Source: Candidatus Eutrophovita brisbanensis (GTDB taxonomy: Bacteria > Pseudomonadota > Gammaproteobacteria > Burkholderiales > Eutrophovitaceae). From it: DNA of 64,000 bases. The translations under genes were made by a program, and so were the position numbers. The stretch is taken from positions 77,863 to 141,862 of the forward strand of contig JAYQTM010000001.1 of NCBI GenBank assembly GCA_038147395.1, read 5' to 3'. Below the pieces are notes generated by a model. The model had not been told where the DNA came from, did no database searches, and saw nothing but the letters and a program-made list of their open reading frames with translations. Positions within the stretch are counted from its first letter, which is position 1; every line of letters starts with the position of its first letter. This document shows positions 4,223-44,776 of the stretch, piece by piece.

Positions 4223-6109
4223 ATGAATACTAACGTGCAAGGGACTCAAAAACAAAGTATCGCTGCCCTAACCATTGCAGCCATTGGCGTTGTCTTTGGG
4301 GATATCGGAACGAGTCCAATTTACACAGTCAGAGAAGTATTTAGCCCACGCTACGGGATCGAGCCATCAACGGATAACATCCTAGGTTGCCTTTCACTCA
4401 TATTCTGGGCATTAGCACTCATCGTTGCAGCGAAATACGTCTTCTTCATGCTCAAAGCGGACAATCGTGGCGAGGGTGGCATGATGGCACTGCTTGCCCT
4501 AGTTCTAAAGGCAACAGAAAAGAAACCTCGAAAACGGTTCTTGCTAATCACACTCGGATTATTTGGAGCAGCGCTGTTCTATGGCGATGGGATTATCACG
4601 CCAGCTATTTCCGTGCTGTCAGCCGTGGAAGGGCTTGGCGTAGCGACTCCGGCTCTAGAGCCCTACGTGATACCGATTACGATCGTGATCGTCATCTTAT
4701 TATTCATGTTGCAACAAAAAGGAACTGGCGGCGTTGGTGCGCTCTTTGGCCCTGTCACCGTCATATGGTTTGGTGTACTGGGTGTGCTTGGAATCACAAA
4801 TTTAATTTTGGATCCATCCGTGCTTCGGGCTATCAACCCAGCGTACGCTGTGGGTTTCTTCGTTGAGAATAAAATCTTCGGGTTCTTGGCTATTGGTGCG
4901 ATTGCGCTCGCGGTGACGGGTACAGAGGGTATCTACACTGACATGGGCCATTTCGGCCGCAAACCCATACGCTTCGCTTGGAGTCTGTGGGTATGGCCGA
5001 ATTTGCTACTAAATTATTTTGGCCAAGGTGCATTGATCATCTCATCACCCGAGACCATCTCTCACCCATTTTTCAATATGGTCCCATCATGGGGTCTCTA
5101 TCCACTCATTTGCATGACGACCGTGGCAACGGTCGTTGCGTCTCAAGCGGTCATCTCGGGCACCTACTCACTGACGCGTCAAGCAATCCAGCTAGGTTAC
5201 TGCCCCAGACTGGATGTGTTTCATACCTCGGAAAGTGAGATTGGTCAGATTTATATGCCCTGGATCAATTGGACTCTTCTAGCGGCAGTCCTTTTGCTCA
5301 TTCTCTCTTTTGGATCCTCCAGCAATCTAGCCAGCGCGTATGGTGTAGCCGTCACTGGAATGATGACTATCGATACCGTCATGGCGTATTTTGTTGTCAC
5401 CCACTTGTGGGGTTGGCGTCGGTGGTATGCCATACCGATCGCACTGATTTTCCTCGTCTTTGATCTCATTTTATTCTCGGCGAATTCAGTGAAAGTTATC
5501 CATGGTGGTTGGTTCCCTTTCACCATCGGGTTAGTGCTATTTATTTTTTTCACTACCTGGTATCGAGGCCGCCAAGCCTTAGCAAAAGAACTTGCTCCAG
5601 ATTCACTCGAAATCGGTCCGTTTTTAAAGAGCCTCGCGAGCTATCCTCCTCAGCGAGTGAGCGGCACTGCTGTATTCATGACGACGTCTCCAAACGCAGT
5701 GCCACATGCTCTGCTGCATAATCTCAACCACAATAAAGTGCTCCACGAGCGCGTCATACTACTAAACGTGTCAACCGAAGAAATACCTCACGTCGCCACG
5801 CAAGAACGACTCGAAGTAGAGGCGATCACAGAGGATTTCTACAAGGTCGTGGTGCGTTATGGGTTCAAGGACCAGCCCGATATACCTGCAGCGCTTCGCC
5901 TAGGGCGCGAGAAAGGGATTGATCTGAATCCTATGGAGACCTCGTATTTTCTATCTCGACAAACACTTGTACCAAAACTAGGAAAAGACATGGCGTTATG
6001 GCGAGAAAAATTATTCGCCCTCATGTCGCGGAACTCCTCAAGTGCCGTCAGCTTTTTTAATCTCCCTGCGAATAGAGTCGTCGAATTAGGTACCCGAATC
6101 GAGCTGTAA
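4223..6109 (+). CDS. kup: Potassium uptake transporter Kup (KUP/HAK/KT family)
   Basis: 628 aa, about 12 TM segments and a cytoplasmic C-terminal domain. The N-terminal signature GVVFGDIGTSPIY and NRGEGG motif are present. Confidence 0.95.
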   Translation: MNTNVQGTQKQSIAALTIAAIGVVFGDIGTSPIYTVREVFSPRYGIEPSTDNILGCLSLIFWALALIVAAKYVFFMLKADNRGEGGMMALLALVLKATEKKPRKRFLLITLGLFGAALFYGDGIITPAISVLSAVEGLGVATPALEPYVIPITIVIVILLFMLQQKGTGGVGALFGPVTVIWFGVLGVLGITNLILDPSVLRAINPAYAVGFFVENKIFGFLAIGAIALAVTGTEGIYTDMGHFGRKPIRFAWSLWVWPNLLLNYFGQGALIISSPETISHPFFNMVPSWGLYPLICMTTVATVVASQAVISGTYSLTRQAIQLGYCPRLDVFHTSESEIGQIYMPWINWTLLAAVLLLILSFGSSSNLASAYGVAVTGMMTIDTVMAYFVVTHLWGWRRWYAIPIALIFLVFDLILFSANSVKVIHGGWFPFTIGLVLFIFFTTWYRGRQALAKELAPDSLEIGPFLKSLASYPPQRVSGTAVFMTTSPNAVPHALLHNLNHNKVLHERVILLNVSTEEIPHVATQERLEVEAITEDFYKVVVRYGFKDQPDIPAALRLGREKGIDLNPMETSYFLSRQTLVPKLGKDMALWREKLFALMSRNSSSAVSFFNLPANRVVELGTRIEL

Positions 6110-6297
6110 GCGGGCTAGGGCGGGGAATCGCTTTCTCCACGCTCGTTGAGGTAGACTAAGTCACTTATTCTTTATATATTTGTTGCGTGCTAAAGGGTGT
6201 TTTGCCGAGCGGCTCACAGTCTGTGTCAATCGCGCGAAGCACTCAGCAAAATTAGAGCCTTCCATCAAAGGCCGCTCAACCAGAGGAATCATTAATA

Positions 6298-7149
6298 ATG
6301 GACTACGTCGCCCCTAATTCGGCTCAAGAAGTCAGCCAAGCCCTATCAAAAGAAGGAGCTTTCGCGCTCGCAGGTGGAACAGACTTACTTGTCAAACTAA
6401 AAACGCGGATGAGTGTTCCGCAAACCGTGGTTGATATCAAGAACGTTCCTCGCATCCGATCAATTGAAAAAACGGGTGACAGTTGGTGGATTGGCGCAGC
6501 CACACCCTGTGCCGAAATCTCAGAGCACGCGGATTTTGCAAAAGATTGGCCTGGCGTTGTAGAGGCGCTATCGCTCATCGGCTCAACTCAAATTCAAGGA
6601 CGTGCCTCACTTGGCGGAAATCTATGTAACGCGTCACCTGCAGCTGATAGCGTGCCAGCGCTTATCGCAGCGCGTACAACCTGTGTCATTTCCGGTGAAA
6701 GCGGTGAGCGGGAAGTGCCAGTCGAATCGATCGTTCAGTCCCCAGGTAAAACTTCTTTGAAACAAGGCGAATTTATTGTTGGTTTCAGATTGCCCTTAAG
6801 CGCGAACAAATCTGGAGACGCATACTTAAGACTGATACCGAGAACAGAGATGGATATTGCTGTCGTCGGCGCAGGAGTCGCACTGTCTCTGGATACATCT
6901 GGGAAAATAGCTGCCATTCGAATCGCCCTTGGTGCTGTCGCACCAACCCAAGTAGTTTTGTCTGGCCTAGAAGACCTGTGTGTCGGAAAAGAGCCGAACA
7001 ACGACTTGATTGAAAAGCTTGTCGCTATCGCCGAAGATGCCTGTAAACCAATCGATGACAAGAGAGGCACGGTTGAATATCGCAAAACAATTGCCGGAGT
7101 TCTAACAAAACGAGCATTTTCAATCGCATTGGATAGAGCTAAAAATTAA
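6298..7149 (+). CDS. Molybdenum hydroxylase FAD-binding (medium, CoxM/XdhB-like) subunit
   Basis: 283 aa with the AGGTDLLVKLK FAD-binding motif and a C-terminal CO-dehydrogenase-flavoprotein-like region (DDKRGTVEYR). It is the first of an M-S-L gene trio. Confidence 0.85.
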   Translation: MDYVAPNSAQEVSQALSKEGAFALAGGTDLLVKLKTRMSVPQTVVDIKNVPRIRSIEKTGDSWWIGAATPCAEISEHADFAKDWPGVVEALSLIGSTQIQGRASLGGNLCNASPAADSVPALIAARTTCVISGESGEREVPVESIVQSPGKTSLKQGEFIVGFRLPLSANKSGDAYLRLIPRTEMDIAVVGAGVALSLDTSGKIAAIRIALGAVAPTQVVLSGLEDLCVGKEPNNDLIEKLVAIAEDACKPIDDKRGTVEYRKTIAGVLTKRAFSIALDRAKN

Positions 7150-26168: not shown

Positions 26169-27584
26169 TTAGTAGCGATAATGTTCAGGTTTGTAGGGGC
26201 CCTCTCGCGTTACCCCAATATATTTCGCTTGAGCTTCGGTTAATTCCGTGAGCTGAACATTCAAGGTTGCTAACTGCAAACGAGCGACCTTCTCATCTAA
26301 ATGTTTCGGTAGGACATAAACACCAAGCGGATATTTCTCTGGGTGATTGAACAGTTCAATTTGTGCAATCACTTGGTTTGCAAAGGATGAACTCATGACA
26401 TAACTCGGATGTCCAGTCGCACACCCAAGATTCACAAGTCGACCCCCTGCCAAGAGGATGATCTTCTTTCCGTCTGGAAACACAATATGGTCGACTTGGG
26501 GTTTGATGTTTTCCCATTCATATTTTTCGATTGAGGCGACATCGATTTCATTGTCGAAATGTCCGATGTTGCACACAATTGCCTGATCCTTCATCGCTGC
26601 CATGTGATCATGTGTGATCACGTTGTAGTTTCCAGTCGCTGTCACAAAAATGTCTGCCTTATCCGCGGCGTACTCCATTGTGACCACCCGAAAACCTTCC
26701 ATGCTGGCTTGCAACGCACATATCGGGTCCACTTCAGTGACCCAAACTTGGGCTGAAAGTGCTCGCAACGCCTGTGCAGAGCCCTTACCCACATCGCCGA
26801 ATCCCGCAACAACGGCGACTTTGCCAGCAATCATGACGTCTGTCGCGCGCTTAATCGCATCAACAAGTGACTCTCGACATCCATACAAATTATCGAATTT
26901 GGATTTTGTCACTGAGTCGTTCACGTTAATTGCTGGAAAACGAAGCGAGCCCTCTTTGGCCATCTCGTAAAGACGCTTCACACCCGTCGTCGTCTCTTCT
27001 GTCACGCCCTTGATTGCAGCCAGTCGTGGGGAGTACCAATTGGGGTCTACCGACAATTTTTTCTTGATCGCACTGTAAAGCGCGCGCTCCTCTTCACTCG
27101 TGGGATTATCAAGAACGGTTAAATCAGTTTCGGCCTTAGCGCCTAAATGAAGCAATAACGTGGCATCACCTCCGTCATCGAGGATCATATTCGCTTGCTC
27201 ACCTGGCCAGTCAAAAATTCGATGCGTGAATTCCCAATACTCATCAAGACTCTCGCCTTTGAACGCAAATACCGGAACTCCTGCTTCAGCAATCGCTGCC
27301 GCTGCGTGATCTTGTGTGGAATAAATGTTGCAAGACGCCCAGCGGACATCGGCACCCAGGGCGGTGAGGGTCTCTATTAACACGGCCGTTTGAATTGTCA
27401 TGTGAAGCGAGCCCGCGATACGCGCCCCCTTCAAGGGTTTGCTGTCGACAAACTCTGCACGAATCGACATCAACCCTGGCATCTCGGTTTCAGCAATCGC
27501 AATCTCTTTACGACCGAATGCCGCATGTGAGAGATCGGCTACAACGTAATCATCCTTGGATAGTTCTTTTAACACTGCTGACAT
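26169..27584 (-). CDS. ahcY: Adenosylhomocysteinase
   Basis: 471 aa with a conserved AhcY sequence throughout ([33 protein letters not shown]-terminus). An AGGAG SD is present. Confidence 0.97.
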
Positions 27585-27621: not shown

Positions 27622-27667
27622 AAAAAAAACGCCCATAAACCCTGAACATAATTTGGTTTATGAGCGC
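27622..27667 (-). terminator. Intrinsic terminator forming the expression platform of the SAH riboswitch
   Basis: The minus-strand RNA reads GCGCUCAUAAACC-(loop)-GGUUUAUGGGCG followed by U8. The 5' arm reuses the GGCGCUC 3' segment of the aptamer. Confidence 0.75.
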
Positions 27668-27726
27668 CGTTTTCCGTGCTGAGCCTAGCCCCGACTGTTT
27701 TCCGGGGTCGCAACGCTCCTCAGCAA
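27661..27726 (-). promoter_or_regulatory. SAH (S-adenosylhomocysteine) riboswitch aptamer
   Basis: The minus-strand RNA reads UUGCUGAGGAGCGUUGCGACCCCGGAAAACAGUCGGGGCUAGGCUCAGCACGGAAAACGGCGCUCA. This contains the conserved GAGGAGCG-UGC, CAGGCUC and AACGGCGCUC blocks and the P4 hairpin. It sits in the canonical position upstream of ahcY-metF. Confidence 0.85.
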
Positions 27727-27734
27727 TGTTGCCA

Positions 27735-36299: not shown

Positions 36300-36797
36300 A
36301 TGAGGAACAGACCAATGAAAAAAACAGTACTTAACCTTATCTTTAGTTTTTTTGCAGTGAGCGCACTCCAAGCCCAGGCGGTTGAAATGCGACCTGTCAT
36401 GACTCTTGATCTCGCAAAAAAAATGGCTCTCGCTTGCGAAGAAAAAGCCATTCAGGAGGGCTGGAAACTAAACATAGCCATCATGGATAACGGCGGAAAT
36501 TTAGTCTACTTTGAGCGCATGGATCGAGCATTCCTAAAGAGCATCGACATCGCTATTTTGAAAGCTGAAACCTCTGCAGGGTTTCCATTTTCAACCAAAG
36601 TGCTTGAAGAAATCGCGGCAACAAGAGTCCCTGGCATTGCTCACGTTCCAGGCATTGCAACCTTTGAAGGTGGTCTACCCGTTAAAACGGCAAGCGGCGA
36701 GCACATTGGGTCAATCGGTGTCTCCGGTGCAAAAGCACATGAAGACGGCATCTGCGCTCAAGCGGCAATTGATGCGGTAGCAGAAGACCTCAAGTAA
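36300..36797 (+). CDS. Secreted GlcG/HbpS-like (DUF336, haem-binding/degrading-like) protein
   Basis: 165 aa with signal peptide MKKTVLNLIFSFFAVSALQAQA and a GGLPV...GSIGVSG motif typical of GlcG/DUF336. Confidence 0.7.
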   Translation: MRNRPMKKTVLNLIFSFFAVSALQAQAVEMRPVMTLDLAKKMALACEEKAIQEGWKLNIAIMDNGGNLVYFERMDRAFLKSIDIAILKAETSAGFPFSTKVLEEIAATRVPGIAHVPGIATFEGGLPVKTASGEHIGSIGVSGAKAHEDGICAQAAIDAVAEDLK

Positions 36798-36801
36798 AAA
36801 A

Positions 36802-37470
36802 TCAAAGTTTTGTGCCGTGGCTCAATATTCTGAGCGCGGCACAAGCAGCGCCATATCCATTATCGATGTTTGTGACGGTCAACCCTGAGGAACAACTGGA
36901 TAGCATCGACTTCAGCGCAGATTCTCCACCCTTCGCAACGCCATAACCAACCGACGTCGGCACTCCAATAATTGGCTGACTCACCAACCCGCCCAGGACT
37001 GTTGGAAGAGCAGCATCCATGCCTGCCACCACGATCAACACATCGGATTTTTGAATATCACTGAGTCGTTCCATGAGTCTCCATAGACCGGCCACACCCA
37101 CATCAGCAACCTCTCTCGGGGCGTGACCGTAGTATCTCAATGTCCTTGCCGCTTCTCGTGCGACCCCTGCGTCCGAGGTGCCAGCAGAAATTATTGCGAC
37201 GCGGTTTTCATCGCGCGAGTCATGTGCCTGACCAAATATTGCCGTTTGGGATAGTTCGTCGTAATCCAAGTCAAAACTCTGAATCTCCGTAATCGCCGCG
37301 TGCGTCTCGCGATTTAACCGCGTTAACAAAAAACTCTGTTGTTTCGATTTTGCCTGCGTCAATATTTCTACTATGTGGTCTGCCGTTTTTCCCTCACAAA
37401 ATATCGCCTCTTCAAGTCCAATGCGCTGGCCACGATCAAAATCTAATTTAATATCTGATGAACGAGTCAT
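36802..37470 (-). CDS. larB: Nickel-pincer cofactor biosynthesis protein LarB (NaAD carboxylase/hydrolase, PurE-like fold)
   Basis: 222 aa with an N-terminal extension plus a PurE-like core (VAIISAGTSD, AGMDAALPTVLGG, IGVPTSVGYG). It shares an ATGA overlap with larE and belongs to the larC-larE-larB operon. Confidence 0.85.
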   Translation of the reverse strand: MTRSSDIKLDFDRGQRIGLEEAIFCEGKTADHIVEILTQAKSKQQSFLLTRLNRETHAAITEIQSFDLDYDELSQTAIFGQAHDSRDENRVAIISAGTSDAGVAREAARTLRYYGHAPREVADVGVAGLWRLMERLSDIQKSDVLIVVAGMDAALPTVLGGLVSQPIIGVPTSVGYGVAKGGESALKSMLSSCSSGLTVTNIDNGYGAACAALRILSHGTKL

Positions 37471-38309
37471 GCTACCTCCGTGGTAGAACTTGGTTTCACG
37501 TGGATAAATGCACTACCGACCGAGTAATAATCGATACTCACCTTGTTTGAAAGCTCATTATCGGAAAATATCTGTTTAACTTGATCAATCAGTTGTCCCT
37601 TCGCTAAATCGTCGAGCCCGTCCAATGTGTTGGCATCCAACTCAATCGTGATTCCCGTCGAGCGAACTCGACACCTGACTGCAGAGGGGTTTCCGCCGAG
37701 ATATTCCTTGACGCAACGCTCAGCGTTGTTAATTAATGGAAGCACCCTGGAATCAATTCGAATACCCGTCTCTACCCGACTTGATAAACAAGGAGACGCG
37801 GGCAAATCAGCCAAATGACCAAGTCCGACCGACGTGGCAATCTCACGAACGATGCGTTTAGAGATCTGAGACTCGACAAAGGGGTGTCTGACCTGCGCTT
37901 TTTCGGCGGCATTTAATCCAGGTCGATAATCACCGATGTCATCTAAATTAGCCCCCGAAAGAATTTGCCGATTCGTTCGAGACGCGATACTGTCGTATAG
38001 GTTCGTTTTACAAAAAAAACAACGGTTCACCGGGTTGGCCAAGTAATCCTCATCTAAAAACTCACCCGCATCGATAACATTTAATCGCCACCCTCGATCA
38101 ATCGCGAGTTTCTTTGTCCGTTCTGTTGCCTCGGGTGGCACAGCGGGAGATACCGCATGAAATAATTCGACGTCAAGGTCATTCACGCTTTCCGCTACCG
38201 CCGCTAACGTGAGGCTGTCAATTCCACCACTGACTGCGATCGCCACAGCGTTCATTTGCATGAGCTGCTCGGTCAACCGCTTCATGTGCAGTTTCGTATC
38301 GACGCTCAT
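37467..38309 (-). CDS. larE: Nickel-pincer cofactor biosynthesis sulfur transferase LarE
   Basis: 280 aa with the PP-loop SGGIDS and the sacrificial-Cys context PASPCLSSRV. Confidence 0.85.
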   Translation of the reverse strand: MSVDTKLHMKRLTEQLMQMNAVAIAVSGGIDSLTLAAVAESVNDLDVELFHAVSPAVPPEATERTKKLAIDRGWRLNVIDAGEFLDEDYLANPVNRCFFCKTNLYDSIASRTNRQILSGANLDDIGDYRPGLNAAEKAQVRHPFVESQISKRIVREIATSVGLGHLADLPASPCLSSRVETGIRIDSRVLPLINNAERCVKEYLGGNPSAVRCRVRSTGITIELDANTLDGLDDLAKGQLIDQVKQIFSDNELSNKVSIDYYSVGSAFIHVKPSSTTEVA

Positions 38310-38887
38310 TTCAACTGCTCGTTAGGGCTTTCTACCAGAGCCTCTCGACGAATGGCTTCACGCTCGCGATGCCCTCGAACTCCCTCGAGTGAGGAAACCT
38401 CAACCTTTCCATCCCATTGATCGTCGTCAGCTCGCGATACCAATTTGATGTCGACCATATGACCGTCAACATTAACCGTCGTCTGTTCTCGACTCAGTGT
38501 GACTCTCCGTAGCGTCTGATAACGAAGGCCTATGGTAGTTGTTTCTAAAAAGCACGCTCTGAATACTTCATCAACTCTATCAACCTGGGCAAGCACTCGA
38601 ACGGTGATGCCAATGCGGTTTTTTTTACCAGTAAATGACGTTTGAACGACATCTAAGACCGTATCGATCGCCCGAATGTGATCCAATCCAATCGCTAAAT
38701 CCTCTGGAGACTGATCGTCGATATCAAACTCGATTTGTATCACGGTATCGCCATCATGATCGCTCTTACCCGTTAAAACGAGCAATCTGACAACGTTACT
38801 CTTTCCTGTTAACGTCCGTGTACCAAAACCAATGCCTGACCCGGCCAGAGTTCCTGCCGGCATCACACCCTGTTGTGTTGGTTTCAA
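38306..38887 (-). CDS. larC: LarC (nickel insertion cyclometallase, DUF111), C-terminal fragment in a different frame from the N-terminal fragment
   Basis: This frame stays open upstream to 38971. There it encodes GFEFYDDGIGGERITPTGAAILNYL, the conserved LarC TPTGAA segment, before the first possible start (TTG at 38887). Confidence 0.8.
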   Translation of the reverse strand: MKPTQQGVMPAGTLAGSGIGFGTRTLTGKSNVVRLLVLTGKSDHDGDTVIQIEFDIDDQSPEDLAIGLDHIRAIDTVLDVVQTSFTGKKNRIGITVRVLAQVDRVDEVFRACFLETTTIGLRYQTLRRVTLSREQTTVNVDGHMVDIKLVSRADDDQWDGKVEVSSLEGVRGHREREAIRREALVESPNEQLK

Positions 38888-38942
38888 ATAATTCAGGATT
38901 GCCGCACCAGTTGGGGTGATCCGCTCACCCCCAATTCCATCA

Positions 38943-39497
38943 TCATAAAACTCGAAACCCTCGAGTAAGTATCACAGTCGCTGGTGTCGGCACTGGAAGC
39001 TCGCCATGACTCGTCTTGACCCGACCATGTCCAAGCGGGAGCAGCCCAACCGTCCACTGCGCGTCAAGTTGATGAATTAAAAACGCCGCCCCAACGATAT
39101 CCGCAATTGAATCCCACTCGCCAACCTCATGAAAACTGATCGTGTCGACAGTTTTCCCATGAACCTGAGCTTCGGCCTCAGCCAATCGAGTAAAAATGGC
39201 TATCGCAATCTTCGTCACCTCTTCCGATAGCGGAGACTGCTCCAGCATTTCTTTTATTTGTCGGTAGGGTGTGTGGTGGTGATGGTCTTCAACAGCAGAC
39301 TCATCAACATGGAAGTATGTCCCAGTGAGAATCTTATCGGAATGTTCTCTCAGCTCCATGCCCACAACATCAGGGAGGCCTGCGGCACGAATCGCCGAAC
39401 ACATGCCCTCATAGAGTTCGGGCCGAGCGTCTAGGACCGCGGCAATAAACATATCTCCGGCGATGCCACCGACAAGATCAAGGTGTGCGCGCGTCAT
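38943..39497 (-). CDS. larC: LarC (DUF111), N-terminal fragment
   Basis: The fragment has HLDLVGGIAGDM at the N-terminus, a His-rich stretch (EDHHHHTPY), and FHEVGEWDSIADIVG. It ends at a TGA 11 nt after a GGG-TTT-CGA site where both frames encode Gly-Phe. Confidence 0.8.
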   Translation of the reverse strand: MTRAHLDLVGGIAGDMFIAAVLDARPELYEGMCSAIRAAGLPDVVGMELREHSDKILTGTYFHVDESAVEDHHHHTPYRQIKEMLEQSPLSEEVTKIAIAIFTRLAEAEAQVHGKTVDTISFHEVGEWDSIADIVGAAFLIHQLDAQWTVGLLPLGHGRVKTSHGELPVPTPATVILTRGFRVL

Positions 39498-39532
39498 CAG
39501 CTCCTCGCCTTAGCTATACCAAACTCAAGGCA

Positions 39533-40855
39533 CTACGCGTGCACATGCTCCTTTGGCGCCATCATTGGGTACAACTTCCCTTTCGTATCAAATTTAAACG
39601 GTTGGGCGTCGCTCAGAATTTCAAATTTGTCGGGGTTATTTTTGATGTGTGGCAAAAGATTTTCTGACACGTGAATATCCATGACCTCTAGCGTCGTCGA
39701 TATTCGAACAATCTTCGTATCCTGAGGCTTCACTCTAACAACCGTTTTTACGGCAAGTTGAATCGCTTCCTGATCACTATTCATGATGATAGGAATCGCC
39801 GCACCATCCAGATAGGTCGACGTAATAACGTTTGCGTAGGTTTTCGCAATATCTAACTCTCGGTATACATCCATCGTGATAACATCCGCGGCGCCCAAGC
39901 CTGTGGCGTTACCGTGTGTCTCTGGTGTGAGGCCTAAAACTGCTATTTTCTTGACGTGTGGCTTCATATCCCACTCAACCTGCCGGCAATTACGGCCGGT
40001 GATATTTGGATCCATACCGGACCCAGAAATATTTTTCCCGATTTTCTCAACCACCAAAACGTCAATTTCATCGAATTGGAGCATCGGCATATATTGCTTT
40101 GCTAGGGTCTGAAGCTCAGGCTCTCGATCAAAGATCTGCTCGCTCGGCACAACCTCAATGATCGCTGTCTCATCCGCTGCATTTTCAATCATCGCAACAC
40201 CGAACAGAACATTTTTGGTACCCATGATAATTTTTGCCGCCTTGGGTAAAAGCTCACCGAACATATCCATACCGTAGGTATGAAGTGTCGATGCACCAAT
40301 AATTTTACCCATTCCAATAGTGAGCATTTTCACAATTCCGGACTCGATCGGCGCTCGAAAATTCGTATGCGGCTTAATTCGACACACAAGCGCGATGGCG
40401 TCCGCCTCGGCCGCAAATTTATCAAGGTAAACCGGCATTCCGTCGTCAGCCTTTCCAATCTCAACGACTTCCATACTCGACTTAACAGGGCAGCCAATAT
40501 AAGCCTCCGTCACACCATAACCGTCAAGAACTTCTTTCTGTCCTTCGGCTGTTGCACCGCCATGGCTGCCCATAGCTGGAAAAACAAACGGCTCGGCACC
40601 CAGCGCCTTGAGTTGCGTTACGACCGCTTTGACACACTCAGCAATGTTATTCACACCTCGCGAGCCAACGCCGAGTGCAACGGTCATACCTGGCGTGATT
40701 TTTGACTGGATGTCAGGTTTCGCGAATTCGCTGACGACGGTAGCCGTCACATCATCAATTCTTGGTAATTGAAATTTTTGCCTGACATGCACCATTTTTG
40801 GAAGTGCGACGTCTAGTCCACCCGCAATGTTTACGTCTATACGATCACCGATCAT
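39533..40855 (-). CDS. LarA-family (lactate-racemase-like, nickel-pincer-dependent) 2-hydroxyacid racemase/epimerase; substrate unknown
   Basis: 440 aa from the ATG at 40855 with an AAGGGA SD. Motifs PAMGSHGG and RIKPH-x13-K-x15-H align by eye with LarA His108, His174, Lys184 and His200. It is the first gene of the operon that continues into larC-larE-larB. Confidence 0.65.
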   Translation of the reverse strand: MIGDRIDVNIAGGLDVALPKMVHVRQKFQLPRIDDVTATVVSEFAKPDIQSKITPGMTVALGVGSRGVNNIAECVKAVVTQLKALGAEPFVFPAMGSHGGATAEGQKEVLDGYGVTEAYIGCPVKSSMEVVEIGKADDGMPVYLDKFAAEADAIALVCRIKPHTNFRAPIESGIVKMLTIGMGKIIGASTLHTYGMDMFGELLPKAAKIIMGTKNVLFGVAMIENAADETAIIEVVPSEQIFDREPELQTLAKQYMPMLQFDEIDVLVVEKIGKNISGSGMDPNITGRNCRQVEWDMKPHVKKIAVLGLTPETHGNATGLGAADVITMDVYRELDIAKTYANVITSTYLDGAAIPIIMNSDQEAIQLAVKTVVRVKPQDTKIVRISTTLEVMDIHVSENLLPHIKNNPDKFEILSDAQPFKFDTKGKLYPMMAPKEHVHA

Positions 40856-41004
40856 CAACAATCCCTTCAGCCTAAAGTAGAAAATTTCAAAGGCAACTTG
40901 CCCCTTCTGGTCTTTCAGTTATTCTATCTCAGAACCTCTACTTTAGCCCCAACCAAATATGGCTCCCATGCTAATCTCAGCTTGTTCACACTTAAAGCAA
41001 TTCC

Positions 41005-42738
41005 ATGCCAAGTCCTAAAAAACTCAAAAGTGCCGACTTGAGGTCCCATAAATGGTTTGGCCCACAGACACTCAGGGCTTTTGGGCATCGCTCTCGAACG
41101 CTACAGATGGGATTCAGTCGAGAAGACTACGAAGGAAAACCTGTTATCGGGATACTTAACACGTGGAGTGAACTCAGCCACTGTCACTCGCACTTTCGAG
41201 AGCGAGCGGAAGACGTCAAACGAGGGGTATGGCAATCAGGCGGCTTTCCTGTCGAAATACCCGTCCTATCACTCGCTGAGGTTTATCAAAAGCCGACCAC
41301 CATGATGTATCGAAACCTCCTGGCCATGGAGGTTGAGGAGGTTCTGAGGTCCTATCCGATCGATGGCTGCGTCCTGATGGGGGGGTGCGACAAAACACCT
41401 CCTGGTTTATTGATGGGTGCGATCAGCATGGGTTTACCAACCATTTTTGTCCCAGCAGGCCCAATGTTGCGCGGAAATTGGCATGGCAAAACACTTGGAT
41501 CGGGATCGGACGTGTGGAAATACTGGGATGAGCTGCGCGCTGGAAATATCTCACAACAAGACTGGCATGATATTGAGGAAGGCATTGCCAGATCCGTTGG
41601 GACGTGCATGACAATGGGCACCGCATCGACGATGACAAGCATTGTCGAGACACTTGGTTTCGCTTTACCAAACTCCTCAACCATTCCTGCGCCAGATTCA
41701 AACCATCCGAGGATGGCGTCGAATTCAGGAAGACGCATCGTTGATATGGTTTGGGAAGATTTACGTCCTCGTCATATCTTGACCGAGCGATCGTTTGACA
41801 ATGCCATTCGTACGCTGATTGCGCTAGGGGGATCGACCAACGCACTCATCCATCTTATTGCCATCGCCAGGAGGGCTGGCTTTGAGTTGGCGCTCGAAAA
41901 GTTTGAGGAATTGGGACAGTCAACGCCCTACCTTGTCAATATGAGACCATCCGGTAAATATCTAATGGAAGATTTTCATTATGCTGGCGGGCTCGCTGGA
42001 TTACTCAACGAGATGCGTTCACTGTTGCATCAAGACGAGATAACTTGCACCGGAAAAACGCTCGGCGAAAACATCTCCCCATTCAAAATTCACAACTCAG
42101 ATGTCATCAAACCGCTGGATCAACCCATGTCGCCTGAGGGTGGTCTGGTGGTTTTGCGAGGAAACCTCGCTCCAAACGGTGCCGTCATCAAGACAAGTGC
42201 AGCCACCCCATCATTACTGCAACATGTAGGTAAAGCGATTGTTTTTGATGACTACAACGATATGGAAAAAAGGTTAGACGACCCCGATCTTGATGTCGAC
42301 GAGAATAGTATTCTAGTGTTGCGAAATGCTGGTCCCCAGGGGGGGCCGGGTATGCCCGAATGGGGGATGTTGCCGATCCCAAAAAAATTACTAAAAAACG
42401 GGGTGCGTGACATGGTCCGTGTATCAGACGCGCGGATGAGCGGCACAAGTTACGGGACCTGTGTCCTGCATGTCTCACCAGAGTCCTGGATTGGAGGGCC
42501 GCTGGCATTTGTCAAAACGAATGACCGCATGGAGCTCAATGTTGCCAATAGAGAAATTAATCTTCTTATTTCTGATGATGAATTGGCATCGCGAAAGAAA
42601 CAATGGCGACCCAATCCTGAGAAATTTTCTCGCGGTTACGGAAAATTCTTCACTCGTCACATCTTACAAGCTGACGAAGGGTGCGATTTCGATTTTCTCA
42701 ATTCTAACGACGCAACACCTGACCCGGAAATTCATTAG
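41005..42738 (+). CDS. IlvD/Edd-family dehydratase of the aldonate (arabonate/xylonate)-dehydratase type
   Basis: 577 aa with RSHKWFG...GKPVIGILNTWSELSHCHSHF...GGFPVE...GGCDKTPPG, a pattern shared with L-arabonate/D-xylonate dehydratases. Fe-S cysteine contexts are present. Confidence 0.8.
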   Translation: MPSPKKLKSADLRSHKWFGPQTLRAFGHRSRTLQMGFSREDYEGKPVIGILNTWSELSHCHSHFRERAEDVKRGVWQSGGFPVEIPVLSLAEVYQKPTTMMYRNLLAMEVEEVLRSYPIDGCVLMGGCDKTPPGLLMGAISMGLPTIFVPAGPMLRGNWHGKTLGSGSDVWKYWDELRAGNISQQDWHDIEEGIARSVGTCMTMGTASTMTSIVETLGFALPNSSTIPAPDSNHPRMASNSGRRIVDMVWEDLRPRHILTERSFDNAIRTLIALGGSTNALIHLIAIARRAGFELALEKFEELGQSTPYLVNMRPSGKYLMEDFHYAGGLAGLLNEMRSLLHQDEITCTGKTLGENISPFKIHNSDVIKPLDQPMSPEGGLVVLRGNLAPNGAVIKTSAATPSLLQHVGKAIVFDDYNDMEKRLDDPDLDVDENSILVLRNAGPQGGPGMPEWGMLPIPKKLLKNGVRDMVRVSDARMSGTSYGTCVLHVSPESWIGGPLAFVKTNDRMELNVANREINLLISDDELASRKKQWRPNPEKFSRGYGKFFTRHILQADEGCDFDFLNSNDATPDPEIH

Positions 42739-42763
42739 CAATAACAGACCTCGGAGGCTACTC

Positions 42764-43474
42764 TTGACAGATAAAACACCGCCATACGAAGACATGCTAG
42801 CTTCCGTAACCACGGCGAGTCTAAGCGCTCAACTCGTAAAACGAGGCTTTCGGACGCGCTCCATTCCGAACATTCAATCTGTTAACCCCACAACCAAGCG
42901 ACTAGTCGGACGAGCATTTACCTTGCGTTACATACCGATGCGGGAAGATGTGGCCACAGGGCCTAACATGGGGAAACCAGACAATCCTCAACGTCAGGCG
43001 ATAGAAACGGTCCCCCCGGGGCACGTCCTCATCGCCGATACCCATGGGCTTGATGTGAGCGGCACGTTCGGTGACATACTCGTCGCAAGACTACAAGTGC
43101 GAGGTGTGGCGGGGATCGTATCCGACGGGCCGATGAGAGATGTGAGTGAAATTAAACGAATGCCTCTACCGGTTTTTGCAAGACAAAATGCTGCGCCACC
43201 TAGCTACGCCAGCATGATGGCAGTGGACTCACAGGTCCCCATAGGCTGCGGTGGTGTTGCCGTGTTCCCCGATGACCTTATCGTCGCAGATGAAGACGGA
43301 GTCGTCGTCGTGCCTCAGGATATTGCCGACGAGGTTATCGTCGATGCCTTTCAACAAGACCAACTTGAAACTTATATCCGTATGCGCATTGATAACGGAG
43401 AATCGATCGTTGGTGTATACCCAGCCAGCGAATCTGTGATTGCCGAATATGAAGAGTGGAAAAAAAATCGTTGA
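42764..43474 (+). CDS. RraA-family protein (4-hydroxy-4-methyl-2-oxoglutarate aldolase / oxaloacetate decarboxylase-like)
   Basis: It carries the family motif GTFGDILVARLQVRGVAGIVSDGPMRD (G..G.....G..G.V.DG..RD). A TTG start at 42764 follows a GGAGG SD by 6 nt, and an alternative ATG lies at 42794. The ORF is open back to 42461 inside the preceding gene. Confidence 0.75.
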   Translation: MTDKTPPYEDMLASVTTASLSAQLVKRGFRTRSIPNIQSVNPTTKRLVGRAFTLRYIPMREDVATGPNMGKPDNPQRQAIETVPPGHVLIADTHGLDVSGTFGDILVARLQVRGVAGIVSDGPMRDVSEIKRMPLPVFARQNAAPPSYASMMAVDSQVPIGCGGVAVFPDDLIVADEDGVVVVPQDIADEVIVDAFQQDQLETYIRMRIDNGESIVGVYPASESVIAEYEEWKKNR

Positions 43475-43597
43475 GTATCTCGCGCACTATTTTTAAATAT
43501 CATGAACTTTCATCGCGATTTCAATTGGGGCCAAAGCGTCGGATATGAGTCCCATAGATCTCACCATTTGCTGATCTTTCCGAGAATTTAAACAACC

Positions 43598-44776
43598 ATG
43601 TCAACATCCCGAGCCGGCCGACACTTTTTACAAATACCTGGACCGACAAACGTGCCAAATCGTATTCTTTCGGCGATTTCTCGACCCACCATTGATCACC
43701 GAAGTGACGAATTCCAAGAACTTGGTTTAGACATTTTCGCGAAGTTAAAACGGTTGTTTCGATGCGAAGCCTCCGTATTTGTTTATCCATCCTCAGGAAC
43801 CGGAGCCTGGGAAAGCGCATTGGTGAATACTTTAAATCCGGGCGACACGATACTGATATACGAAACTGGATATTTTTCAAACCGGTGGAAGTCCCTCGCT
43901 GAACGTCTTGGCATCAAAGTTGAGCTACTCGAATCAGATTGGCGTCAGCCTGTTGATAGCTCCCGTATTCACCACACCCTCAAAAAAGATTCAGAAAATC
44001 TCATCAAAGCTGTTTGCGTGGTTCATAACGAAACGTCAACAGGGGTTGTCTCAGATATTAGTGGAGTAAAACGAGCAATCACAGAGGCAGAGCACGATGC
44101 ACTCCTCATGGTCGACACAATTTCCTCTCTTGGTTCTATTGATTACGACCACGATAAGCTAGGCGTAGATGTCAGTATCGGTGCGTCTCAAAAGGGGCTC
44201 ATGCTGCCTCCAGGGCTTGGTTTTACCGCCGCGAGTGAACGCGCCTTAAGGATGAATGCAACATCAAAATTCCCGCGAAGCTACTGGAGCTGGGAGGAAA
44301 TGCAACCGCATTGTCAAAAGGGCTTTTTCCCCTACACACCAGCGACAAATCTTCTTTTTGGGTTACAGGAGGCACTTAAAATGCTTCTAGATGAAGTCGG
44401 CCTCGAGCCCACATTCAAACGTCATGAGCGGCACGCTCGAGCGACACGACAAGCCATATCTCATTGGGGGCTAGAAATGCTGTGCCAAGATACAGCGTGT
44501 GCTAGCAACACACTGACCGCCGTACTCACGCCTGGCAACGTCAGCGCCAATAGCCTAAGGAAACTTATATCTGAAAAATTCGATATGTCTCTTGGAACGG
44601 GGCTCGGGAAATTTGAAGATAAAGCTTTCAGGATTGGACACCTGGGTGACTTTAACGATTTGTCTTTGGCAGGGACTTTATCTGGAGTCGAAATGGGCCT
44701 CCGACTGTCAAACATTCCCTTCAACACGGGCGGCGTCCACGCCGCCTTAGAATATCTCGCCGGCTCTATCGATTAA
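43598..44776 (+). CDS. Class-V PLP aminotransferase (serine-glyoxylate / alanine-glyoxylate aminotransferase-like)
   Basis: 392 aa with the N-terminal HFLQIPGPTNVPNRIL and PLP-lysine motif GASQKGL. Confidence 0.8.
   Translation: MSTSRAGRHFLQIPGPTNVPNRILSAISRPTIDHRSDEFQELGLDIFAKLKRLFRCEASVFVYPSSGTGAWESALVNTLNPGDTILIYETGYFSNRWKSLAERLGIKVELLESDWRQPVDSSRIHHTLKKDSENLIKAVCVVHNETSTGVVSDISGVKRAITEAEHDALLMVDTISSLGSIDYDHDKLGVDVSIGASQKGLMLPPGLGFTAASERALRMNATSKFPRSYWSWEEMQPHCQKGFFPYTPATNLLFGLQEALKMLLDEVGLEPTFKRHERHARATRQAISHWGLEMLCQDTACASNTLTAVLTPGNVSANSLRKLISEKFDMSLGTGLGKFEDKAFRIGHLGDFNDLSLAGTLSGVEMGLRLSNIPFNTGGVHAALEYLAGSID

Follow-up and report, generated by a model that had tools for sequence, protein, structure and literature searches.

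In Lactiplantibacillus plantarum the genes larB, larC and larE, which serve to make a cofactor, nickel-pincer nucleotide (NPN), stand beside the gene for the NPN-dependent enzyme LarA. Another NPN-dependent enzyme, the D-gluconate/D-mannonate 2-epimerase GntE (LarA groups 19 and 20), is encoded in sugar-acid gene clusters of Thermotoga maritima and Corynebacterium glutamicum and inverts C2, letting one epimer enter the downstream pathway (PMC7583248). Here we analyze a comparable locus of Candidatus Eutrophovita brisbanensis, a member of the Burkholderiales, contained in a stretch of 64,000 nucleotides (contig JAYQTM010000001.1 of assembly GCA_038147395.1, positions 77,863 to 141,862; hereafter the window). 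In this locus a larA homolog is followed on the minus strand by larC, larE and larB, and genes for an IlvD/Edd-family dehydratase, an RraA-fold protein and a class-V aminotransferase diverge from it. The cofactor trio thus adjoins the NPN enzyme as in L. plantarum, the Arg, His, His, Lys and His residues with which LarA binds the cofactor and catalyses are common to the window enzyme, and the sugar-acid setting is like that of GntE.

The dehydratase also has described relatives. L-arabinonate dehydratase of Rhizobium leguminosarum (5J83) and PuDHT, which belong to the oxidative pentose (Weimberg/Dahms) pathways, share with the window enzyme the NCBIfam equivalog, the cluster Cys residues, the SGT motif and the C-terminal His. 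Substrates reported for this class are L-threonate, D-xylonate, D-gluconate and L-arabinonate, and the C-terminal His favours chains of at least five carbons (PMC9314677); by our own reading these four acids share the 2R,3S configuration. The RraA-fold family includes aldolase/oxaloacetate decarboxylases, RNase E regulators and the keto-deoxy-glucarate dehydratase/decarboxylase FlDet, whose activity shows that 2-keto-3-deoxy acid sugars can be substrates of the family (PMC8563752). Our literature search found no characterised enzyme of LarA group 22, to which the window enzyme is assigned below, and no published route combining an NPN enzyme or an RraA-fold protein with an IlvD-type enzyme, beyond Table S1 of Desguin et al. 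2020 and FlDet. The preliminary description of the locus, made from its sequence, had proposed an uncharacterised hydroxy-acid or sugar-acid route. The association of group 22 with COG0129 (30%) had already been tabulated (Desguin et al. 2020, Table S1), and participation of an NPN-dependent epimerase in sugar-acid catabolism was known from GntE.

The group-22 LarA homolog and the divergent dehydratase

We slightly favour the view that the minus-strand Lar operon and the divergent dehydratase jointly process a polyhydroxy acid, the isomerase feeding the dehydratase. The evidence consists of the identities of the genes, the conservation of catalytic residues and the co-location of both enzymes across phyla. 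The eight-gene block was confirmed by the listing of open reading frames (ORFs) and by profile searches of the window, which bore out the gene identities, positions and 149-bp divergence given in the preliminary description (Table 1).

The larA homolog product matched the NCBIfam model NF052515, 'NPN-dependent isomerase, group 22', over model positions 1-391 of 392, and matched Pfam Lar_N weakly (27 bits). Four LarA homologs from diverse relatives, among them Bacillota, a Geopsychrobacteraceae metagenome-assembled genome (MAG) and a Bathyarchaeota MAG, also passed the group-22 cutoff with 512-560 bits. Residues R66, H98, H163, K176 and H192 were invariant over 20 family sequences of 44-85% identity, and their spacing (+32, +13, +16) fits that of R75, H108, H174, K184 and H200 of LarA, which are listed as conserved (R, H, H, K, H) in group 22 (Desguin et al. 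2020, Dataset S2). Sequence searches of the PDB did not place the protein, the single sequence retrieving nothing relevant there and a 20-sequence profile reaching LarA-like structures only at E 0.096, and comparison of the fold was therefore needed. Foldseek against the PDB, using a predicted structure built from a shallow alignment and confident in the N-terminal domain (residues 261-391 had pLDDT below 50), gave LarA-family structures as all of its top 18 matches (E 2e-9 to 1e-5, probability 1.00; next match at E 7e-3), with structure-based identities of 13-18%. By sequence and fold the protein truly belongs to the LarA superfamily and comes with maturation genes of its own; it lies outside the characterised clades. 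The window clade forms a separate branch of the group-22 tree, with at most 48% identity to any non-betaproteobacterial sequence there. Among the groups of the LarA superfamily that still lack a known reaction, group 22 is one of the larger; more than 7,900 homologs were found here at E <1e-10.

The dehydratase passed NF009559, whose name, 'L-arabinonate dehydratase', is an annotation and not the result of an assay. It also passed NF004784 and NF009560, subfamily models named 'dihydroxy-acid dehydratase', but did not reach the cutoffs set for the ilvD and edd equivalogs (TIGR00110, 444 against 618 bits; NF009103, 285 against 710; edd, 231 against 708) or for the ilvD model NF002068. The best PDB matches were 8ej0 (648 bits), entitled 'Dihydroxyacid dehydratase', which we take to be PuDHT although the entry title does not say so, and 5j83, the Rhizobium L-arabinonate dehydratase (646 bits). 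Its motifs comprise C60, C128 in GGCDKTP (at 126), C201 in GTCMT (at 199), MSGTS at 478 and a C-terminal His. The published signatures of sugar-acid dehydratases are three cluster Cys, GCDKT(T), SGT(A) and a C-terminal His, whereas branched-chain dihydroxy-acid dehydratases carry GCDKNM/SGGT (PMC9314677); the window enzyme differs slightly from the former consensus at two positions (P for T, S for A). Since the cluster Cys, GCDKT, SGTS and C-terminal His are present and the ilvD and edd cutoffs were missed, the motifs and scores support a sugar-acid type of dehydratase rather than a biosynthetic IlvD, in agreement with the preliminary description.

The gene neighbourhoods of group 22 were then compared outside the betaproteobacterial clade. 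An alignment-based scan gave 80 further loci, whereas a scan from a single Sporomusa protein yielded only 8; the taxa covered were Bacillota, Spirochaetota, Synergistota, Desulfobacterota and related groups, Chloroflexota, Acidobacteriota, Alpha- and Gammaproteobacteria and Bathyarchaeota. The following counts refer to 105 loci outside the clade, in which all ORFs were clustered and representatives profiled with Pfam. Dehydratases were of the UxaA/GarD type in 30 loci and of the IlvD/Edd family in 14, often directly adjacent to the group-22 gene, and on a tree of group 22 the IlvD/Edd neighbours occur in five or more separate branches. Further neighbours were short-chain dehydrogenases (SDR; 28 loci), TRAP (about 20) and TctA (14) transporters, FGGY kinases (19), genes of a 6PGDH-like cluster that includes a tartronate-semialdehyde reductase (15) and DHDPS-family enzymes (13); KDPG aldolase, PfkB kinase and glucuronate isomerase (UxaC) were likewise found. 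Outside the clade, group-22 genes are accordingly members of clusters for the catabolism of acid sugars.

In two of these loci the dehydratase beside the group-22 gene itself passed NF009559, namely in Geomicrobium halophilum (Bacillota, locus L093; 1012 bits) and in a Geopsychrobacteraceae MAG (L126; 988 bits), where the two genes are 12 bp apart. An HpcH/HpaI class II pyruvate aldolase is encoded in both clusters, along with TctABC and an iron alcohol dehydrogenase. In L126 there are also genes for a true tartronate-semialdehyde reductase and for glycerate and pyruvate kinases, a set that resembles the lower glucarate/galactarate route. The cross-phylum NF009559 neighbours, together with the aldolases, are the strongest evidence on the point and suggest that isomerase and dehydratase work together. 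Thus, of the neighbourhood claimed in the preliminary description, the core pair of isomerase and dehydratase recurs across phyla, whereas this species and one related genus are the only ones in which the RraA-like and aminotransferase genes go with it.

We infer the order of the two reactions, and an acid sugar or aldarate as substrate, from these associations. LarB, LarC and LarE would build the NPN cofactor and load the group-22 enzyme, which would most likely invert a carbon that bears a hydroxyl group (probably C2) in a mono- or dicarboxylic polyhydroxy acid, through transient transfer of a hydride to the cofactor. The dehydratase, presumably accepting one C2/C3 configuration only, would turn the isomerised acid into a 2-keto-3-deoxy acid, and the isomerase would thereby widen the range of stereoisomers entering it.

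Other sets of genes accompany group 22 elsewhere. Eight Bacillaceae loci (L096, L103, L108, L111, L115-L117 and L119) share a recurrent set of slightly varying order, comprising a ROK regulator, glucuronate isomerase, the group-22 larA homolog, an SDR enzyme, larE, an FGGY kinase, larB and larC, with a gene of the 6PGDH cluster nearby. By analogy this set points to a hexuronate route, where the group-22 enzyme may have a GntE-like role as a mannonate/gluconate-type epimerase.

Table 1. Features of the Lar and dehydratase block (window coordinates; scores in bits, followed by the model cutoff where one applies)
Feature	Position	Strand	Product and profile match
larB	36802-37470	-	222 aa; nicotinic acid adenine dinucleotide (NaAD) carboxylase/hydrolase of NPN synthesis; NF033503 271.8 vs 175; Pfam AIRC
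larE	37467-38309	-	280 aa; ATP-dependent sulfur insertase, CXXC-C type; TIGR00268 224 vs 150
larC	38306-39497	-	CTP-dependent nickel insertase; Pfam Ni_insertion; two pieces in the window
LarA homolog, group 22	39533-40855	-	440 aa; NF052515 534.1 vs 400
Divergent intergenic region	40856-41004	.	149 bp
IlvD/Edd-family [2Fe-2S] sugar-acid dehydratase (predicted)	41005-42738	+	577 aa; NF009559 969.7 vs 882
RraA-fold protein	42764-43474	+	236 aa; PF03737 118; NF006093 291 vs 208
Class-V aminotransferase, serine:glyoxylate / alanine:glyoxylate type	43598-44776	+	392 aa; PF00266 84

Gene order in close relatives and alternative explanations

Several observations weigh against the joint processing of an acid by the two enzymes, or against parts of the reaction proposed. 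Group 22 is labelled 'unknown function', and the residues of LarA that bind the substrate carboxylate, Y294, Q295 and K298, are replaced in the published group-22 alignment by D, T and I (or V) (Desguin et al. 2020), so that the reaction could be something other than a plain inversion at C2. In the model of the LarA homolog the C-terminal (substrate) domain is unreliable, and the block contains no transporter, regulator, upstream dehydrogenase or lactonase that would indicate the substrate.

Gene order in the closest relatives adds to these points. The window LarA homolog was used to fetch 80 loci, 61 of them from uncultured Burkholderiales/Betaproteobacteria at 66-85% identity. In essentially all of the 61, larC (there a single gene), larE and larB follow the larA homolog, so this operon travels as a unit. 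The dehydratase gene is divergent from it and adjacent in the nearest marine relatives (L001, L003, L004, L006, L007, L011, L045 and L060), and six fetched relatives carry the aminotransferase gene (L001, L004, L006, L007, L009 and L060). Among the fetched relatives an adjacent RraA-like gene was found only in the window species and L060; it is missing from L001, L004, L006 and L007, L003 has the dehydratase alone and L009 the aminotransferase alone. The RraA-like and aminotransferase genes have thus been both gained and lost independently in sister genomes. Moreover, in 39 of the 61 loci (L008, L010 and in the range L012-L061) genes read by eye as glgB-glgA stand immediately upstream of the larA homolog, on its strand and at a distance of about 70-110 bp, and where the flank suffices the dehydratase gene is found 5-9 kb off beyond unrelated genes, with the RraA-like gene further on. 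The presence of glgA was confirmed by Pfam in one such genome; divergently upstream are a gene read as glgC and two ORF families of 560-660 residues, read by eye as GH57. Orthologs of the RraA-fold protein (63-68% identity) elsewhere adjoin UbiD/UbiA, or a Rieske oxygenase and DAO/GCV_T, with no dehydratase nearby.

Across the betaproteobacterial clade the order can be written as hslVU, hbpS, larBECA, [variable], ilvD-like, [variable], rraA-like, [variable], sua5, purC, the variable inserts including the glg cluster, RtcB/archease/HSP20, a cation-efflux gene or DUF1330 with a CitMHS transporter. Because the intervening genes differ and the dehydratase is distant in the glg loci, adjacency within this clade could reflect a gene order that was inherited, and not a functional coupling. 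In its full form this explanation holds that the lar operon serves an unrelated substrate and that the dehydratase, RraA-like and aminotransferase genes are independent of it and of each other, made neighbours by DNA loss in a streamlined marine lineage. The synteny of the block across the clade with its differing inserts, the varying gene content of the closest relatives (L001, L003, L004, L006, L007 and L009) and the unrelated contexts of RraA-like orthologs elsewhere all agree with it. It does not predict, on the other hand, that group-22 genes adjoin IlvD/Edd genes in several unrelated phyla and tree branches, with dehydratases of the same NF009559 subfamily in L093 and L126, nor that non-homologous UxaA/GarD-type dehydratases occupy the same position in 30 loci, nor that the survey of Desguin et al. 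2020 found the same association. We regard inherited order as a serious competitor, though clearly the less probable account, to the coupling of isomerase and dehydratase.

A transporter was seen in one locus of the clade. In L183 (positions 4643-6478; contig CALODZ010000016.1, with glgA at the locus edge) a CitMHS/TrkA_C-type anion transporter gene and DUF1330 lie between the dehydratase and RraA-like genes, which is the clade's sole hint of a transporter; going by its length, the contig is one that also has a LarA homolog of 83% identity.

The glgB-glgA neighbours raise the question of whether the group-22 enzyme of this clade works with glycogen or alpha-glucan metabolism and not with the dehydratase. 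Beside the 39 betaproteobacterial loci, three Bathyarchaeota MAGs (L147, L155 and L162) have a gene of a BLAST cluster read as GlgC (nucleotidyl-transferases) directly upstream of the group-22 gene. However, none of the 105 loci outside the clade has glgA, and no glg genes are present here in the window or in its nearest relatives. We know of no NPN chemistry on glucans or sugar nucleotides, and a glycogen role appears unlikely. The three Bathyarchaeota loci continue after the larA homolog with genes for an iron alcohol dehydrogenase and a D-2-hydroxyacid dehydrogenase, a context unlike the bacterial ones.

A further alternative concerns the cofactor genes, which the preliminary description had called a complete NPN set. 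LarB and LarE are intact and scored above their family cutoffs, and larC is present, but in the window it is split by a single base, which had been missed. It forms two ORFs in different frames (38943-39497 and 38306-38887), over which the Ni_insertion match is divided (model positions 2-177 and 204-357). The Lar system could on this account be dead, with larC a pseudogene, or depend on a programmed frameshift as in L. plantarum, where larC1 and larC2 are joined at residues 271/272, the LarC1/LarC2 boundary (PMC13510736). Alignment with eleven relatives placed the change of frame at one extra base, at about 38968-38969, corresponding to residue 176 or so, inside the LarC1 domain and away from that boundary, and the site is not a slippery sequence. 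An uninterrupted larC of 396 codons is present in 8 of 10 conspecific assemblies, whose alleles at the break are GTGATCTTACTC or GTGATACTACTC, synonymous and both in frame. The window reads GTGATACTTACTC at 38960-38975 (minus strand), as if the two alleles had been merged, and at precisely this site two other MAGs of the species are interrupted by scaffold gaps of 100 N. No further lesion was found in either half of larC, and a lookup of the exact 184-residue LarC1 ORF product gave no match in the collection, which fits an artefact. Because most conspecifics are in frame, the window merges two alleles and two MAGs are gapped at the site, the break reads as an assembly artefact, a strain-mixture chimera of two alleles. 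We rejected both the programmed frameshift and the pseudogene, which have very little left to recommend them, on the position of the break, the in-frame conspecifics and the allele merge, and, the break being apparently artefactual, conclude that the Lar set is probably intact in the organism. An apparent gene break in a MAG can thus be a merge of two strain alleles.

LarE has the motifs of a PP-loop (SGGIDS at 27-32), C97xxC100 and C174. This CXXC-C motif set is that of the [4Fe-4S]-dependent catalytic, non-sacrificial LarE of T. maritima (PMC9283937), although the name of the NCBIfam model matched by the window protein says 'sacrificial'.

Finally, that the IlvD-family gene encodes the biosynthetic dihydroxy-acid dehydratase of the organism, as passing NF004784 and NF009560 might indicate, was rejected as most improbable given scores under TIGR00110, NF002068 and NF009103 and over the L-arabinonate dehydratase cutoff, the GCDKT, SGT(S) and C-terminal His signature in place of GCDKNM/SGGT, and the inactivity of PuDHT, a characterised sugar-acid dehydratase, on dihydroxyisovalerate (PMC9314677); the same motifs and scores make it unlikely that this is the organism's only biosynthetic IlvD.

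The RraA-fold protein, the aminotransferase and possible substrates

For the RraA-like gene the most likely start is TTG 42764, after GGAGG, in agreement with the gene calls in conspecific assemblies; a long overlapping ORF starting with GTG at 42461 was disfavoured. The preliminary description had placed its product in the RraA/HMG-CHA-aldolase family. The family assignment is upheld by PF03737 and by alignment to the Pseudomonas putida HMG/CHA aldolase 3NOJ, in which D104, R125 and D126 (236-residue numbering) fall on D102, R123 and D124 of the chain, presumably the active-site Asp and Arg-Asp pair. A closer assignment was not obtained, since the protein passed only a generic subfamily model (NF006093) and missed the equivalog cutoffs of HMG/CHA aldolase (NF006731, 97.6 against 179 bits; TIGR02798, 84.3 against 304.5) and of RraA (NF006875, 49.4 against 136; TIGR02998, 33.3 against 241). 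Its best PDB relative was 5X15, entitled 'Putative transferase', which we take to be RraAS2 of Streptomyces. On these sequence grounds its function may be that of a class II pyruvate aldolase or of an oxaloacetate decarboxylase, and the dehydratase-then-aldolase logic of L093 and L126 means that the window protein could be an analogue of the aldolases found there.

Orthologs of the RraA-fold protein at 63-65% identity were seen in an alphaproteobacterial MAG (L179) and in metagenome contigs (L184-L186), flanked by an NMT1-type binding protein or TRAP permease and by a Rieske oxygenase and a DAO/FAO/GCV_T enzyme, which looks like a different catabolic cluster without a dehydratase.

The aminotransferase is of the class-V AGXT/SGAT-like type, as previously described: its best PDB match was 6pk1, a plant serine-glyoxylate aminotransferase (321 bits), and its best NCBIfam match was BhcA, at 403.6 bits against a cutoff of 650 and hence not an equivalog. 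In sister genomes that carry the gene it adjoins sua5.

Participation of the RraA-fold protein and the aminotransferase in a common pathway with the isomerase and dehydratase is chemically plausible, and the evidence for it, confined to this lineage, is weak. The RraA-fold protein would split the keto-deoxy acid into pyruvate and an aldehyde or glyoxylate (or decarboxylate oxaloacetate), and the aminotransferase would take the C2/C3 fragment; we offer this extension tentatively. A broader proposal is more speculative still. In it, group 22 would consist of NPN-dependent epimerases that act on aldaric acids or other dicarboxylic polyhydroxy acids, perhaps among them the long-orphaned tartrate epimerase, or, given the replaced substrate-binding residues, of enzymes for a hydride-shuttle isomerisation different from C2 inversion; these would feed an IlvD/Edd dehydratase and, in this abundant marine lineage of the Burkholderiales, then an RraA-fold aldolase, with the aminotransferase capturing glyoxylate or hydroxypyruvate. 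If true, this would constitute a nickel-dependent entry into acid-sugar catabolism not described before. We consider this proposal rather improbable as a whole.

As to the substrate, TctABC, CitMHS and GarR/GarK-type neighbours in related loci are a hint, by analogy, of dicarboxylic (aldaric) acids, and substrates probably differ between the branches of group 22. Betaproteobacteria, Bacillota and a Geopsychrobacteraceae genome all show the isomerase paired with a dehydratase of one defined subfamily, which reduces the compounds for a substrate screen to aldonic and aldaric acids in epimer pairs. The function of the LarA homolog may matter for acid-sugar turnover in the sampled habitats, since the exact protein is indexed in 72 blocks of a metagenome and genome collection. 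Overall, the interpretation in the preliminary description was partly supported: the pairing of the core genes is real and recurrent, though tabulated before, and the extension to aldolase and aminotransferase is weak.

Setting of the locus and comparison with known systems

The arrangement of the eight genes is identical in ten independent conspecific assemblies, with 98.6-99.5% nucleotide identity to the window over 11.3 kb, and G+C content is even across the region at about 48%. The tight spacing and ATGA overlaps reported earlier were confirmed as 4-base overlaps of larC with larE and of larE with larB, the larB start lying over the larE stop; the end of the aminotransferase gene overlaps the convergent sua5 by 4 bases. 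The flanking genes that were profiled are all housekeeping genes, with lpxL, dapF, xerC and hslVU on one side and sua5, purCKE, fba, pgk and gap on the other. Profile searches found no transporter or regulator in the block, as had been stated, nor among the other window genes profiled.

In the divergent gap a -10-like TAGAAT is found at 40921-40926 on the minus strand, about 66 nucleotides upstream of the larA-homolog start. In an alignment with seven related loci the only intergenic block shared was CTGAGATA(A/G)AAT (window 40917-40934, in larA-homolog orientation), a possible promoter or -10 element of the larA homolog. A scan for sigma-70 consensus promoters and terminators was uninformative (1 promoter-like site against 11.6 expected) and gave nothing usable in the gap, and an Rfam scan detected no RNA element in the block.

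A HbpS/GlcG-like (DUF336) gene with an N-terminal signal peptide occupies 36300-36797 on the plus strand. It starts 10 bp past hslU and ends 4 bp from the convergent larB, and it adjoins larB in 31 related loci. Elsewhere in the window an S-adenosylhomocysteine (SAH) riboswitch was detected at 27655-27727 on the minus strand (Rfam RF01057; score 53.9 bits, gathering score 37). It lies upstream of an ORF of 471 codons (26169-27584, minus strand) whose size and position would fit S-adenosylhomocysteine hydrolase.

Compared with the described systems, the locus combines familiar parts in a different way. GntE belongs to another phylogenetic group, and its partners are mannonate and gluconate enzymes, whereas the partner in the window is an IlvD/Edd dehydratase; the window enzyme has T-N/D after the second catalytic His, and according to the published alignment Y294/Q295/K298 are not conserved in group 22. 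The L. plantarum LarE has a single sacrificial Cys where the window protein has CXXC-C, and larC, joined there by a frameshift, is one gene in the conspecifics of the window. Unlike the Weimberg/Dahms pathways, the window has no nearby aldose dehydrogenase, lactonase, keto-deoxy-pentonate dehydratase or semialdehyde dehydrogenase, and its dehydratase is paired with an NPN isomerase. With the D-glucarate/galactarate route (dehydratase, GarL, GarR and GarK) the locus shares the logic of a dehydratase followed by a class II aldolase, as L126 does, but it has no GarL, GarR or GarK, the aldolase candidate being an RraA-fold protein and the dehydratase an IlvD/Edd enzyme rather than GarD/GudD. The 3NOJ aldolase matches the window protein in its RraA fold and in the Asp and Arg-Asp positions, although curated cutoffs for the aldolase and RraA equivalogs were missed. 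The locus is thus a further member of a known, biochemically uncharacterised group, and a lead for its deorphanisation rather than a new kind of system.

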